A stretch of DNA of 64,000 bases, from the IMG/VR virus record IMGVR_UViG_2556921039_000001, one strand, 5' to 3'. The notes below the pieces were generated by a model. That model ran no database searches. It worked only from the letters and a program-made list of their open reading frames with translations, and had not been told where the DNA came from. Positions 26,811 to 31,839 of the stretch are shown here, piece by piece; within the stretch, counting starts at the first letter, position 1, and each line of letters begins with the position of its first letter. Position numbers and translations under genes: made by a program. This stretch comes from a virus.

Positions 26811-27317
26811 CTATTTTCTAAGAAATTCACTATTAGCTATTTGAATTGGATTTATATCATATCCTTTGTTTTTTAAAATTTGGCTCTTAAAATCAACAAG
26901 TTCAACGGGTATGTCCAGTTTTGCTGCAATGAATTCATATGTATATTCCTGCTTTGCAAAATCCATAATCGTATTATCCGGGATAAGCAATTCGGTTGCG
27001 AATAGATTCGCTTCCCGTTCCGGCTTTGATGACATGTCAAAAAGAGAGAATTCCCGGATGGCAGTATTTCTCGCAAAATGCTGATGAAGTCTATCATGCC
27101 CTAATTCATGGGCACATATAATACTCTTAAATTTATCATTTATTTTTTGGTTAATAACTATATAGCGAAAGCGTGACTGGTAAAAATAATACCCCTTCAA
27201 ATTTCCTAAGTTTTCAAAGACAATATTAATATTCATTCCACTGGCAATCTCAAATGGATTGCGAGTTCTATATTTTTTTATTAATCTCTCAACTTCAGTT
27301 GAAATGATATTAATCAT
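26811..27317 (-). CDS. ImmA/IrrE-family metallopeptidase (anti-repressor)
   Basis: CAHELGH (HExxH), EREANLFATELL; directly downstream of an XRE repressor. Confidence 0.9.
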   Translation of the reverse strand: MINIISTEVERLIKKYRTRNPFEIASGMNINIVFENLGNLKGYYFYQSRFRYIVINQKINDKFKSIICAHELGHDRLHQHFARNTAIREFSLFDMSSKPEREANLFATELLIPDNTIMDFAKQEYTYEFIAAKLDIPVELVDFKSQILKNKGYDINPIQIANSEFLRK

Positions 27318-27380
27318 TACTTCACCTACCTTCACCCATAAGTATTCCGGTTAATGCCGTATACTTCTTACTCTTCAGAT

Positions 27381-27809
27381 TTATTTTTTCGTACCATATT
27401 TTTCTCTTGCTTTAGCTTTGGCATCAAAATATATTTTAGTTATTGATTGAAAAAATGCATCCTGGTCTTCTTCTGACAATGAACCACCTGCCATCATTGC
27501 TGCTGTTTTTTCTACGAGTGCTTCGGCTTCTTTCTTACCTTTATACCCAAAGTCTTCTTTAGCAGACGATATAAAATTATCTTCTGTTTTGGAAAGAGCA
27601 TTTCTATTATCAGTATCCGTTATTAAATAATCTACTGATACATTAAATATTTCGGCAAGTTTTCGAATAACCTTTTTATCTTTTGGAAATAAGTTATCTG
27701 TTTCATAATTATATATTGATTTTGTAGATACTCCAATATTTGAAGCCAATTCCTTTTGTGAGTATCCTAGTTCTTTGCGCAGTTTTTTGACTTTTTCTCC
27801 AAAATTCAT
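27381..27809 (-). CDS. ImmR-like XRE repressor
   Basis: SQKELASNIGVSTKSIYNYE...LAEIFNVSVDYL. Confidence 0.9.
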   Translation of the reverse strand: MNFGEKVKKLRKELGYSQKELASNIGVSTKSIYNYETDNLFPKDKKVIRKLAEIFNVSVDYLITDTDNRNALSKTEDNFISSAKEDFGYKGKKEAEALVEKTAAMMAGGSLSEEDQDAFFQSITKIYFDAKAKAREKYGTKK

Positions 27810-28594: not shown

Positions 28595-28707
28595 TGCTAT
28601 ACTGGAATAAAAAGGCGTTAATTTATGCTCTGAAACGTTTATAACGTGACAGGGCTATTTTTATGCCCTTTTTTAAAAAGGAAAATTATAACAATGACTC
28701 GATTAGA

Positions 28708-28739
28708 GGAGTCGCACAATTTTGTGCGGCTCCTTTTTT
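28708..28739 (+). terminator. Intrinsic terminator/attenuator in the leader of the sigma70-r4-like gene
   Basis: GGAGTCGCACA-ATTT-TGTGCGGCTCC followed by T6. Confidence 0.75.
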
Positions 28740-28856
28740 CGTTTTGGGACAAAGGGGTTGTCAATATGCTGTACGAGGTCAACCAGCACTGCCGTTCTCC
28801 ATAAATTCCTCTGTTTTTCAATTCCCTAAAAATTTGAAAAACGGAGGAAATGAATA

Positions 28857-29273
28857 ATGGAAGTAAAGATCAATTATGAAGGTAAGGAAATATGGGTTGA
28901 TGAGCAGGTGAAAGAATGCTTGGACGAATTAAAAAGAGAAGAAAGCGTGCAAAGCAGGAAGAGTAGAAGGCATGAGTTGCTGTGGGATTCAATGCTGATT
29001 GATGGAATTGAAAATGACCAGGGTACATTACCGGAAATAGTGCCTATTGAAGAAGACGTGATTTGGGCTATGTATCTTCAAGCGTTGGACAAGCTTATCA
29101 ATGGACTGGAATCTACGGACAAGCAAATAATTACTGACCGCTTTTTTAATAAAATGAAGTACCGTGAAATGGCTGAAAAATATGCTATGCCGGTTACATC
29201 CATTCAGTACAGAATAGAAAAATCAATCAAGGAAATGAGCCGGAAATTTAATGATGTTCTGAATAAGTTATAG
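28857..29273 (+). CDS. Sigma70 region-4-like (Tn916 Orf7-like) regulator
   Basis: RKSRRHE, C-terminal IITDRFFNKMKYREMAEKYAMPVTSIQYRI HTH; GGAGG RBS. Confidence 0.7.
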   Translation: MEVKINYEGKEIWVDEQVKECLDELKREESVQSRKSRRHELLWDSMLIDGIENDQGTLPEIVPIEEDVIWAMYLQALDKLINGLESTDKQIITDRFFNKMKYREMAEKYAMPVTSIQYRIEKSIKEMSRKFNDVLNKL

Positions 29274-29369
29274 GCAAAGAAAAAAAATTTAAAAGTTTTT
29301 CCGTAAAAACACTCTCTGACTGACCTAAAGGGTGAGGGGATATTTTTATTCCTTCTATGCTCTTTGAAA

Positions 29370-29760
29370 AACGGCAGAGAGTGTTTTTCTTTTCTGCCTA
29401 TATACAATATTTCAGGTACGTTACTCTTGTGGCTGTGATTAGCGGAAAGCGACGTAAGCGAAAACGCCATGAAGGGATTTTTATAATTCCTAAGCGACTT
29501 TTTTTGGCTTTAAATTATCAGTGGTTCTGATAAATCGCCATGATCCACAAGAGGGATAATGATACTTCCGTCAAGTCCTAACTTCTCGTATGGATGACGG
29601 CTCGCTCGGTGAGGGAGAGGTTTAGATACCTATGTTGTCTGCAAACCGCAGATAGCCTGAAATATTCCCGTATTGGGGTGCGTGGCAAATACAATACCAA
29701 ATAAATTAAGAAGCAATAAAGGCAGGAGCTAAGCTATACTCTTGCCTTTAATTTTTATTT
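29370..29760 (+). ncRNA. Candidate large structured non-coding RNA ending in an intrinsic terminator
   Basis: ORF-free; perfect 11-bp long-range helix 29406-16/29656-66, nested 9-bp helix 29424-32/29545-53, several local hairpins, 12-bp terminator stem 29717-28/29739-50 plus T-rich tail. Confidence 0.6.
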
Positions 29761-29813
29761 TAAAAGCAGAGCCAATAACCAATGTGCTGCATTGATTATT
29801 GGTTCTGCTTTTA
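29761..29813. repeat. Long inverted repeat/hairpin upstream of the recombinase operon
   Basis: TAAAAGCAGAGCCAATAA / TTATTGGTTCTGCTTTTA (18 bp, one G-U) plus inner CAATG/CATTG. Confidence 0.8.
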
Positions 29814-29836
29814 AGCAATATTAAGGGGGTCAGGTA

Positions 29837-29971
29837 ATGGATAATAATATGAAGTATTGTATACAGATAGCATATCTAAATCAGCTTATCAGTAAAAAGC
29901 TCATAACAGAAGTTGAATACAAGAAAATTAAAAATTACATAAAAGAAAAATATGGAGCTAAGGCAAGTTAA
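29837..29971 (+). CDS. 44-aa SHOCT-like protein preceding the serine recombinase (absent from the ORF track)
   Basis: MDNNMKYCIQIAYLNQLISKKLITEVEYKKIKNYIKEKYGAKAS*; GGGGGT RBS; L..L...KLITE.EY pattern. Confidence 0.6.
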   Translation: MDNNMKYCIQIAYLNQLISKKLITEVEYKKIKNYIKEKYGAKAS

Positions 29972-30039
29972 ACTGGAAATTGTACGTATTATATACTATA
30001 ATGAACATACAGTTGAATAAGAACACGTTTGAAAGGAGT

Positions 30040-31839
30040 ATGGGTATGGGGGATGTAAAAGTTATTCAAGCAGATAGTAATCTGTTAAATAGAAGAAGAA
30101 AAAGTGCAAATATTGCAGAACAGATACGAGTTGCTCCATATTGCAGGGTAAGTACAGATTCTGAAGAACAGCTATTGAGTTATAATTCACAGGTTATGCA
30201 CTATAAACAGTTGATAGAATCAAATCCGACCTGGGAACTTGTAGAAGTGTATGCAGATGAAGGAATAAGTGGAACACAAATAACTAAACGAATTGCTTTT
30301 CAAAAAATGATTAATGATGCACTTGAAGGAAAAATAGATTTAATTATTACAAAGTCTATTTCGAGATTTGCAAGAAATACATTGGACACATTAAAGTATG
30401 TCAGGCTGTTGAAGGAACATAATGTCGCAATTCTGTTCGAAAAAGAAAACATTAATACATTAACAATGAATGGCGAGATGCTGTTGGTAATATTAAGTTC
30501 ATTAGCCCAGCAGGAGAGTGAGTCAATCTCTTCTAATGTAAAAATGGGTTTAAAGATGAAAATGAAACGTGGAGAAATGATTGGATTTCAAGGCTGTTTA
30601 GGATATGATTATAATCCTATTGATAAAACACTCGTTATCAATGAAGAAGAGGCTGAAACAGTACGTTACATATTCCGTAGATATGTTGAAGGGGCTGGAG
30701 CTTTCGTTATTGCAAAAGAGTTAACTAATATGAAATGTAAAACTAAAAAGGGAAATGAACGTTGGCATGAAAGTACCGTAAGGGGAATTATTAAAAACGA
30801 AAAATACAAAGGCGATTTATTAATGGGAAAAACTTTTACTGTAGATCCTATAACTCATAGAAGATTAGAGAATATGGGTGAAGAAGAAAAGTATTATGTT
30901 AGTAATCACCATGAACCGATAATATCAGAAGAACTGTTTGAGGAAGCACAGAAAATTTTAAGAAAAAGAAGTTCATGTTTTAATAATAAAGGCAGGACTG
31001 AAAAATATAGCAGGAAACATGCTTTCAGTAGTATGATTGAATGCGGTTTTTGTGGCGGTACTGCTATTAGAAGAAAATGGCATAGTGGAACAAATCATGA
31101 AAATTATAACTGGCAATGTAGTACAAGTATTAAACATGGAAGAAAAGCCTGTGCACACAGCAAAGGTGTTAAAGAAGAATATCTGCAAGAAGCATTTGTA
31201 CAGGCATTTAATAGGATTAATAAAGATAACCGGGATATGATTGAGGAATTCCTGACTAATATTGAAGAAGCTCTTGACACTAATGCTCACAAGAAAGACC
31301 TGGAAAAAATAAAGAAGGAAATATCATCAATAGAGAAGAAAGCAAAAAATCTAGTTGATTTAAGAATAAACGGAACAATTGATATAGATGATTATGAGGA
31401 CAAATATCAGGAGCTATCAGAAAAGTTAACAGAATTAAAAGAAGAGAAGATGAATGTAGAAATAACTCTTGATAATGAAAAATCAATGGAAAAGAGAATA
31501 AAAGCCTTCCGTAAAGTTTTCAATACACAAACTCCCCTTGAGAGATTTGCTAGAGAAATATTTGAGAGCTTAGTTGAAAAAGTTATATTGGGTGACATTG
31601 ATGAAGATGGAAATAAGAATCCCTATGTTGTGATTTTTGTTCTTAAAACCGGGATAAAACTTGATGGGAATTGTAAAGGTGATAAAAAATCGGATGAGGG
31701 GTCAACAAACGAAAAAACGTGTTCTTTATCATCAGACGACAGTAACAATTCGTATTCTTATACCACAAACCAGCCATGTGGAGTGCGTCACATTGATGTC
31801 AAGGGTTTAGAAATAAAGAACAGAAAAGCTTGTAAATAA
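30040..31839 (+). CDS. Large serine recombinase (integrase)
   Basis: YCRVST catalytic Ser, YADEGISG, TKSISRFARN, recombinase domain GYDY, Zn ribbon CGFC...CSTS...C, coiled coil. Confidence 0.95.
   Translation: MGMGDVKVIQADSNLLNRRRKSANIAEQIRVAPYCRVSTDSEEQLLSYNSQVMHYKQLIESNPTWELVEVYADEGISGTQITKRIAFQKMINDALEGKIDLIITKSISRFARNTLDTLKYVRLLKEHNVAILFEKENINTLTMNGEMLLVILSSLAQQESESISSNVKMGLKMKMKRGEMIGFQGCLGYDYNPIDKTLVINEEEAETVRYIFRRYVEGAGAFVIAKELTNMKCKTKKGNERWHESTVRGIIKNEKYKGDLLMGKTFTVDPITHRRLENMGEEEKYYVSNHHEPIISEELFEEAQKILRKRSSCFNNKGRTEKYSRKHAFSSMIECGFCGGTAIRRKWHSGTNHENYNWQCSTSIKHGRKACAHSKGVKEEYLQEAFVQAFNRINKDNRDMIEEFLTNIEEALDTNAHKKDLEKIKKEISSIEKKAKNLVDLRINGTIDIDDYEDKYQELSEKLTELKEEKMNVEITLDNEKSMEKRIKAFRKVFNTQTPLERFAREIFESLVEKVILGDIDEDGNKNPYVVIFVLKTGIKLDGNCKGDKKSDEGSTNEKTCSLSSDDSNNSYSYTTNQPCGVRHIDVKGLEIKNRKACK
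31775..31810 (+). other. rlmD: 3' end of 23S rRNA m5U methyltransferase gene (att junction between ICE and prophage)
   Basis: Alternative frame reads HVECVTLMSRV*, matching the conserved HVE(T/C)V.L C-terminus of RlmD/RumA. Confidence 0.75.

Follow-up and report, generated by a model that had tools for sequence, protein, structure and literature searches.

What is encoded in the long intergenic gap that separates a sigma-like gene from a large serine recombinase gene in the virus record IMGVR_UViG_2556921039_000001? The window analysed here is the whole stretch of 64,000 nucleotides taken from this IMG/VR record. On direct reading, the gap between the sigma-like gene and a following open reading frame (ORF) of 44 aa runs from 29274 to 29836. 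It is thus 563 bp long, in line with the gap of about 560 bp without an ORF described in a first-pass annotation made from the letters alone, and the ORFs found within it are short and unsupported (57, 36 and 88 aa). The gap encodes a structured RNA whose helices covary among its relatives, which is homologous to canT of the conjugative element Tn916 and which lies in a matching gene context. By analogy with Tn916, positions 29358-29700 of the plus strand very probably encode a leader RNA of the canT family, a cis-acting processive antiterminator of an integrative conjugative element.

The only Rfam match above threshold in the window is that of pemK RNA (RF02913) at 29556-29635 on the plus strand, which scores 56.2 bits against a gathering score of 34.8, with an E-value of 2.7e-9 and with model positions 1-61 matched over their full length. 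The matched segment has the structure of the family: AUAAUGAUACUU is left unpaired, and after it come three hairpins, closed by a U-A pair. The pemK motif was reported as a candidate cis-regulatory RNA from the screen of Weinberg et al. (2017), and its model spans the core only; PemK genes follow the RNA at just 3 of the 22 sampled loci. A full match to a characterised Rfam family had been named in the first-pass annotation as an argument against a new RNA. Since the model covers 80 of about 300 nt, that argument applies only in part.

What, then, is the function of the whole domain? The region of Tn916 between orf8 and xis, called canT, has been dissected experimentally (Wirachman and Grossman, 2024, PLoS Genet; PMC11658703). 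It is needed for conjugation and for transcription past the terminators T1, T2 and T3 as well as foreign ones, and canT mutants excise normally and fail to express the conjugation genes beyond T1. It acts processively in cis and in one orientation only, is not complemented in trans, requires no other gene of the element and works in a chromosomal promoter-terminator reporter. One inactivating mutation, canT(S3), changes ATA to TGC at nucleotide 283 after the orf8 stop codon. The authors left the structural analysis unpursued, and Rfam and pemK are not mentioned (PMC11658703).

In the copy of Tn916 carried by pCF10, RF02913 matches at 41922-41822 with 55.0 bits, inside canT. S3 maps to 42205 minus 283, or 41922, so that the three bases it changes are those with which the pemK consensus AUAAUGAUAC opens. 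The equivalent ATA is kept in the window at 29556-29558, and it is invariant in 16 aligned sequences save for one C at the second base. An inactivating deletion of 162 bp (41976-41815) removes the last interior hairpin, the 3′ strand of the inner helix and the whole core. A profile was built from 22 relatives, with Tn916, the window and the window's subfamily excluded, and was searched against 114 kb; it matched only Tn916 at 42084-41801 (E 3e-22) and the window at 29400-29691 (E 1e-18), so that the homology spans about 290 nt. A blastn search ('distant') of 29300-29720 against the PLSDB plasmids gave no match, and the homology to Tn916 is therefore visible only by covariance model or profile. 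Every comparison with canT that was run at the level of sequence pointed the same way, and on these grounds the gap RNA is homologous to Tn916 canT over about 290 nt. The idea that it might be an uncharacterised RNA accordingly falls, since its core passes the RF02913 threshold and the whole domain has an experimentally dissected homologue.

How is this RNA folded? Reading 29100-30100 directly, we found all the helices and local stems that the first-pass annotation had named, where it had placed them, including the terminator and the 18+5-bp hairpin downstream. From 5′ to 3′ the parts of the domain and of the region directly after it are as follows.

29406..29417, plus strand: 5′ strand of the outer long-range helix; AATATTTCAGG at 29406-29416 pairs with CCTGAAATATT at 29656-29666.
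29418..29423, plus strand: linker ACGUUA between the outer and inner helices, near-invariant as ACGTT/ACATT in alignments.
29424..29432, plus strand: 5′ strand of the inner long-range helix, CTCTTGTGG, nested within the outer helix.
29433..29544, plus strand: interior domain, with AAGCGA motifs at 29447-52, 29456-61 and 29492-97 and GCCAUGAU at 29537-44.
29545..29553, plus strand: 3′ strand of the inner long-range helix, CCACAAGAG, ending 2 nt before the pemK consensus.
29556..29635, plus strand: pemK motif core, the unpaired AUAAUGAUACUU and then three hairpins.
29636..29654, plus strand: post-core hairpin UGUCUGC/GCAGAUA, arms 29636-42/29648-54, with one G-U pair.
29655..29666, plus strand: 3′ strand of the outer long-range helix; U29417-G29655 is the twelfth pair.
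29670..29697, plus strand: accessory 3′ hairpin GUAUU/AAUAC with the conserved loop GGGGUGCGUGGCAAAUAC.
29718..29761, plus strand: intrinsic-terminator-like hairpin and U-run; stem 29718-28/29739-49, 12 bp with a 10-nt loop.
29762..29812, plus strand: 23-bp near-perfect hairpin, arms 29762-84/29790-812, folding to -31.6 kcal/mol (z -8.4).

The region 29370-29813 folds to -149.9 kcal/mol, compared with -109.6 ± 6.0 kcal/mol for dinucleotide shuffles (z -6.7; none of 100 shuffles as good), and the closed domain 29403-29668 taken by itself has a z of -4.2. The reverse strand of the region also folds well (z -6.25), so the strand is not decided by folding energy alone. However, a U-G wobble conserved at the base of the outer helix favours the plus strand, and of 29 homologues, 24 have the better fold on the plus strand. 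The three stems of the pemK core, 29568-73/29595-600 (CCGTCA/TGACGG), 29601-07/29611-17 and 29618-20/29629-31, are all formed in the alignment to the model. In the interior domain, CGCCAUGA (29465-72) and AAGCGA (29492-97) flank the hairpin 29473-79/29485-91 (AGGGATT/AATTCCT, with one G-U), and a further hairpin, TTATCAG/CTGATAA at 29515-21/29527-33, has a UGG loop. The segment 29465-29497 may be K-turn-like, as the order CGC-CAn-GA-[hairpin]-GA-GCG fits the consensus of a C-stem, a 3-nt bulge and tandem G-A pairs; in the window the second GA is replaced by AA. Of the two hairpins after the domain, the first folds to -16.1 kcal/mol (z -3.4) and is also found by a terminator scan, and the second is terminator-like on the minus strand too, where it gave a terminator match.

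The blocks ATAATGATACTTCCG...GTGGCAAATAC, which the first-pass annotation ascribed to other Clostridial elements, are real: the former is the pemK 5′ consensus and the latter the conserved loop of the accessory 3′ hairpin. Relatives were collected by an exact 14-mer scan with ATAATGATACTTCC over contigs of one genome per species, which gave 120 loci with about 30 true copies, mostly from Clostridia with some from Lactobacillales; by this sampling the set is biased to copies with a perfect ATAATGATACTTCC. The genome from which the window comes has three RF02913 matches itself. In a three-way alignment of the gaps both long-range helices are kept and their sequences differ, the outer helices being AATATTTCAGG/CCTGAAATATT, CAACAGCTCAAA/TTTGAGCTGTTG and TTTATCCGG/CCGGATAAA and the inner ones CTCTTGTGG/CCACAAGAG, CTGTTCAG/CTGAACAG and CCGTATGT/ACATACGG. 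The order around each match is the same: a sigma-like gene of 138-160 aa, the RNA, a small ORF and a large serine recombinase. Three such RNAs with diverged helices imply three separate integrative elements; the other two copies lie at C2:59088-59440 (locus L002) and, on the minus strand, at C3:299281-299600 (L001).

Among 31 relatives, most have an inner helix of 7-10 bp whose sequence varies and which joins a segment about 2 nt before AUAAUGAUAC to one 110-185 nt upstream. In a foreign-partner control, the duplex energy of each 5′ window was calculated with its own 3′ window and with those of the other sequences. The own partner was much the better one, with -11.8 against -5.2 ± 3.1 kcal/mol for the inner helix and -14.9 against -7.9 ± 3.3 kcal/mol for the outer helix, and for both helices it almost always came among the best three of 29. 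From a MAFFT alignment of 16 sequences RNAalifold recovered the outer helix and the post-core hairpin, with 16 of the 18 predicted pairs changed on both sides; 8 of 9 pairs are so changed in the outer helix, and all six pairs of the post-core hairpin have compensatory changes in relatives. RNAalifold predicted nothing from a plain MAFFT alignment of the inner domain, and the inner helix was missed in alignment A1, so that this helix is supported by the anchored duplex energies with their foreign-partner controls and not by a table of pairs. The interior blocks ACGCCAnGAy, GAGCGA and GCnAnGAy are conserved together with covarying hairpins, and a short interior helix GCGA/UCGC is weak and tentative (3.25 against 2.63 contiguous pairs). 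The accessory 3′ hairpin, present in about half of the relatives, has the loop consensus GGGGnGnnGAGGACAAAUA on covarying stems (own -7.8, foreign -2.8). The large, nested, conserved RNA suspected from a single sequence is thus borne out by its fold and by the covariation of both long-range helices, and the Rfam pemK model describes only about a quarter of the conserved structure. One relative lacks part of it: in a Faecalibacterium metagenome-assembled genome (L063, 4150-4330), the boxA-like sequence and the outer 5′ strand lie just 36 nt before the pemK core, and this copy retains the outer helix (CATCTGG/CCAGATG) and the 3′ hairpin but has neither the inner helix nor the interior domain, which makes the interior domain a dispensable module.

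The 5′ region has three features.

29305..29397, plus strand: long terminator-like hairpin, then a U-rich run; closing helix 29307-18/29375-86.
29358..29372, plus strand: boxA-like sequence TGCTCTTTGAAAAAC, the 5′ module of the family.
29373..29398, plus strand: inserted hairpin P0, GGCAGA/TCTGCC, specific to the subfamily; it excludes the upstream terminator-like helix.

All 31 homologues start with a boxA-like sequence, either (a)aCCTTGAAAAyTGAATA or TGyTCTTTGAAAA. In the rRNA operons of the same genome, boxA-like TGATCTTTGAGAATTGAACA is found in the leader and TGTTCTTTGAAAACTACACA in the 16S-23S spacer; Tn916 has TGTTCTTTGAAAACTGAATA. The motif thus resembles boxA of the rrn/nut type, with TGCTCTTTGAAAA here compared with TGTTCTTTGAAAA in the own spacer and TGATCTTTGAGAA in the leader. 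BoxA of the E. coli rrn operons and of the lambda nut sites loads NusB-NusE, which makes it appealing to suppose that Nus factors might be recruited here too. The active 452-nt fragment of Tn916 begins within the motif, at TTGAAAACT, and carries it truncated, and in the minimum-energy fold of 29300-29402 (-38.7 kcal/mol, z -6.0) the boxA-like sequence of the window is paired; both facts call for caution about a recruitment of Nus factors. The terminator scan also flags 29357-29384. The upstream terminator is not general, being found in about 9 of 32 relatives, and at the position of P0 covarying hairpins occur in L002, L012, L111 and L126. The upstream hairpin and P0 may constitute a terminator/anti-terminator choice ahead of the antiterminator itself.

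Two further observations touch on this 5′ region. A motif A(A/G)GTGA(G/A)GGG, at 29326-29341 in the window, stands 20-40 nt before the boxA-like sequence, often with CGT/CGG about 10 nt upstream, and recurs in L002, L012, L018, L020, L032, L048, L063, L103, L105 and L111. In some loci the motif forms the 3′ side of a hairpin, CCCCTCAC...GTGAGGGG; in Tn916 a comparable hairpin, CCTTTCAC...GTGAAAGG, stands upstream of sig7 instead. The motif may serve as a promoter that depends on a sigma factor, or as part of a leader, and the preprint on Sig7-8 gives no promoter consensus with which the conserved AAGTGAGGGG motif could be compared. Elsewhere in the same genome, at C3:112080 (minus), C5:135780 (minus) and C10:92654 (plus), boxA-like TTGCTCTTTGAAAACTGG and TGTTCTTTGAAAAGTGAATAATC lie just 3′ of TATAAT-like promoter boxes, where long non-coding leaders rich in GC begin. 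The leader at C3:112080 precedes an ORF starting MTNLFIGIDVS, a start that by eye resembles an IS110-family transposase, and these boxA-headed leaders are likely transposase-associated non-coding RNAs.

How would the RNA work in this element? The antitermination activity of the RNA, its targets and its contact with RNA polymerase are inferred here from Tn916. In Tn916, the promoter of this transcript is under the control of a split sigma factor made up of Orf7 and Orf8 (2026 preprint). In the window, transcription would come in upstream of the RNA, out of the sigma-like gene or a promoter beside it. The nascent RNA would fold compactly, with the two nested long-range helices around both the interior domain and the pemK core, in which AUAAUGAUACUU is invariant and unpaired, and would remain with the elongating polymerase, making it resistant to intrinsic terminators. 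Such a polymerase could pass both terminator-like hairpins at 29718-29812 into the SHOCT and serine recombinase genes; as these hairpins precede the two genes, expression of the recombinase may depend on the RNA. After excision and circularisation of the element, the polymerase would cross the joint into the co-oriented transfer genes at its left, where at least one clean intergenic terminator lies on the plus strand inside the transfer cluster (L130 15416-15441).

Several points weigh against this scheme. The terminator-like hairpin with its U-run at 29305-29388 separates the sigma-like gene from the folded domain, and a sigma-70 scan found no plus-strand site between 29131 and 29974, so that the upstream promoter put forward in the first-pass annotation was not recovered and the scheme does not account for the access of polymerase to the RNA. 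The recombinase has a promoter-like site of its own just upstream (29974-30002; TGGAAA, 17 nt, TATAAT; score 10/12), comparable to Pint of Tn916, and could be expressed without help from the RNA. The transfer region has 13 terminator-like sites where 10.9 are expected from shuffles, which is no excess over the shuffles, and the left end of the element is off the contig, so that a T1-like insulator terminator is out of reach. The transfer module is unlike that of Tn916, and the functional analogy accordingly draws on the RNA and the regulatory module alone. Finally, a 400-bp fragment of Tn916 was active despite S3, and activity did not track the predicted structures (PMC11658703); the link of structure to function is therefore not simple.

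Could the RNA instead act locally? The first-pass annotation considered a cis-switch gating the excision genes, and action in cis on the transcription of the downstream recombination genes is indeed most likely, judged by analogy with canT. The gating of excision fares worse, as canT mutants excise normally and an expression platform is rarely seen. In its strict form this explanation is a riboswitch or a protein-binding attenuator, in which a ligand-dependent fold controls the terminators at 29718-29812, so that excision would be gated through the SHOCT and recombinase genes alone. Two terminator-like hairpins do stand directly after the folded domain in this copy, and a large domain with conserved unpaired nucleotides is aptamer-like. 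However, just 5 of 28 relatives have a terminator in the first 300 nt downstream, the genes downstream are heterogeneous (serine and tyrosine recombinases, ParA, PemK), and a conserved pair of aptamer and platform as in riboswitches is for these reasons not recognised; neither was any pairing between domain and terminator strands seen that could form an alternative fold. As the Tn916 homologue acts on distant and foreign terminators and excision is independent of it (PMC11658703), we regard a local switch as improbable. Still less probable is a stable non-coding RNA that acts in trans, for example by guiding or regulating the neighbouring recombinase or by titrating a host factor. It would suit the position of the RNA, which in 14 of 22 relatives stands immediately before a recombinase gene, although the RNA also precedes ParA and PemK genes, its helices covary without conserved guide-like loops matching the flanking DNA, and canT supplied in trans did not complement in Tn916 (PMC11658703). 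It would also suit the metatranscriptome contigs, the only ones on a 1.5-kb stretch, which cover 29485-29796. In this sediment metatranscriptome (X20), two assembled contigs of 151 nt, identical in sequence, cover 29485-29624 and 29646-29796, with nothing else of 28600-30100, and so reach over the 3′ two-thirds of the RNA as far as the second hairpin and touch neither flanking gene; they carry neither strand, RNA ends nor level, carry-over of DNA is possible, and they are at most a weak hint of a stable RNA species and no proof of transcription. The X19 contigs are probably DNA.

It is very unlikely that the structure belongs to the DNA, as a single-strand origin or an oriT on the transferred strand. 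The region is ORF-free, hairpin-rich, strand-biased DNA within a conjugative element, and G-T wobbles suit plus-strand single-stranded DNA as well as RNA. No relaxase gene, however, is adjacent at this locus, oriT916 and sso916 are mapped apart from canT in Tn916 (PMC11658703, Fig 1 legend), and canT is active in its chromosomal reporter without transfer or rolling-circle replication (PMC11658703). A different question is by what means a canT-family antiterminator would modify the polymerase. It is conceivable, though rather doubtful, that canT-family RNAs are mobile-element mimics of the rRNA antitermination leader and not protein-free RNAs like put: boxA would load NusB-S10, the folded domain with its K-turn-like CGCCAnGA/GAGCG would complete an rrn-like complex, and in this element, unlike in Tn916, the unmasking of boxA would license excision as well as transfer.

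The genes on either side of the canT-family RNA are the following.

28857..29273, plus strand: sigma-like gene, 138 aa, with sigma-70 region 4 only (Pfam Sigma70_r4_2, E 1.6e-6).
29837..29971, plus strand: SHOCT-domain ORF, 44 aa (Pfam SHOCT_2, E 1.1e-6), with a good ribosome-binding site.
29980..31839, plus strand: large serine recombinase (Pfam Resolvase, Recombinase and Zn_ribbon_recom; CcrB-like by NCBIfam).

NCBIfam models of ECF sigma factors cover only the C-terminal half of the sigma-like product, and the gene is the counterpart of orf7/sig7 of Tn916. The SHOCT ORF occupies the slot that xis has in Tn916, and a role of its product in recombination directionality is a matter of speculation. 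The recombinase likely starts at the ATG at 30046, after GAAAGGAG; it is the last plus-strand gene of the element, and convergent minus-strand genes come next. Among the relatives, the upstream ORF carries Sigma70_r4 in 15 of 28, and the first large ORF downstream, at 22 loci, is a serine recombinase in nine, a tyrosine integrase in five, ParA in three and a PemK toxin in three, the last of which explains the Rfam name.

Farther 5′ of the sigma-like gene are an ImmA/ImmR-like pair (26811-27809, minus strand) and an ArpU-like gene of 183 aa. Between the latter and the sigma-like gene there are two intrinsic terminators, at about 28651-28680 and 28705-28736, and a 64-aa ORF at 28663-28857 is probably no gene because both of them fall inside it. 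The element carries a type I restriction-modification system, a helicase pair and Argonaute as cargo. Its transfer genes, all on the plus strand, lie to the left, first a TraG-like P-loop protein and beyond it NlpC/P60, a Tad-type ATPase and TrbL_4. The stretch to the left of the window (L130, L131; contig C11:1-23000) has on the plus strand TrbL_4, NlpC/P60, DUF6550 and a Tad/Flp-type set comprising RcpC/CpaB, a ParA-like ATPase, a T2SSE ATPase and a prepilin peptidase; at the start of the contig, two tyrosine recombinases and DUF6262 appear to be an insertion. The layout as a whole is Tn916-like, with transfer genes and cargo on the plus strand at the left, and the regulatory module and the recombinase at the right end.

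A gap of about 560 bp is thereby assigned to a regulatory device by which a conjugative element would link its excision with the expression of its transfer genes. The defence cargo of this element includes Argonaute, a type I restriction-modification system and a helicase pair. The orphan pemK motif of Rfam gains a function, as the core of canT, and canT gains a secondary structure supported by covariation. The canT family is also extended past Tn916-like elements to ones with serine recombinases and transfer modules of the Tad/TrbL type.

How does the RNA compare with known antitermination systems? In the conAn system of pLS20, the conAn2 RNA acts together with the protein ConAn1 (Miguel-Arribas et al., 2021; PMC8191782). 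Like the window RNA, conAn2 is a leader RNA of large size that sits close to where a long conjugation transcript begins, and it confers processive antitermination on any terminator. It differs in being defined by a GC-rich stretch and the stem-loops SL1 and SL2, and ConAn1 is needed for its long range (PMC8191782); it shares no Rfam match with the window RNA. The Pfam matches of the flanking genes are Sigma70_r4 and SHOCT, and no homologue of ConAn1 was seen among them, although no search was aimed at ConAn1. EAR of the Bacillus subtilis eps operon and put of phage HK022 are described, in passages of the canT study, as RNAs that act in cis to make polymerase terminator-resistant without a protein of the element (PMC11658703). 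Both are much smaller than the window RNA and differ from it in architecture and context, and neither was matched at Rfam gathering thresholds in the window or at E ≤ 10 across 29200-30050. conAn2, EAR and put are thus analogues of the window RNA and not its relatives. The boxA signals of rRNA operons and of lambda nut differ in another way, in that the boxA-like sequence here is followed by a folded domain of 290 nt that has no rRNA counterpart.

Tn916 canT, on the other hand, has the same nested helices (AATCGAA/TTCGATT and CGATAAGAA/TTCTTATCG) and the same order of parts: the boxA-like sequence, the outer helix, the ACGUU linker, the inner helix, an interior domain with the blocks CGCCAnGAC, GAGCGA and GCnAnGAC, the AUAAUGAUAC core with three hairpins, the post-core hairpin and the 3′ strand of the outer helix. 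It also shares position and strand, between the sigma gene or genes and the recombination genes at the right end. The SHOCT ORF and the large serine recombinase stand here where xis and int stand in Tn916; a single sigma-region-4 gene is found here, with no orf8/sig8-like ORF after it; and the transfer module is of the Tad/TrbL type. A hairpin inserted after the boxA-like sequence and terminator-like hairpins on both sides of the domain are extra here, and the accessory 3′ hairpin is absent from Tn916. The window RNA is therefore one more member of the recently described canT kind and no new system, and what is particular to this copy is its serine-recombinase context, its non-Tn916 transfer module, the flanking terminators, the hairpin after boxA and the accessory 3′ hairpin.

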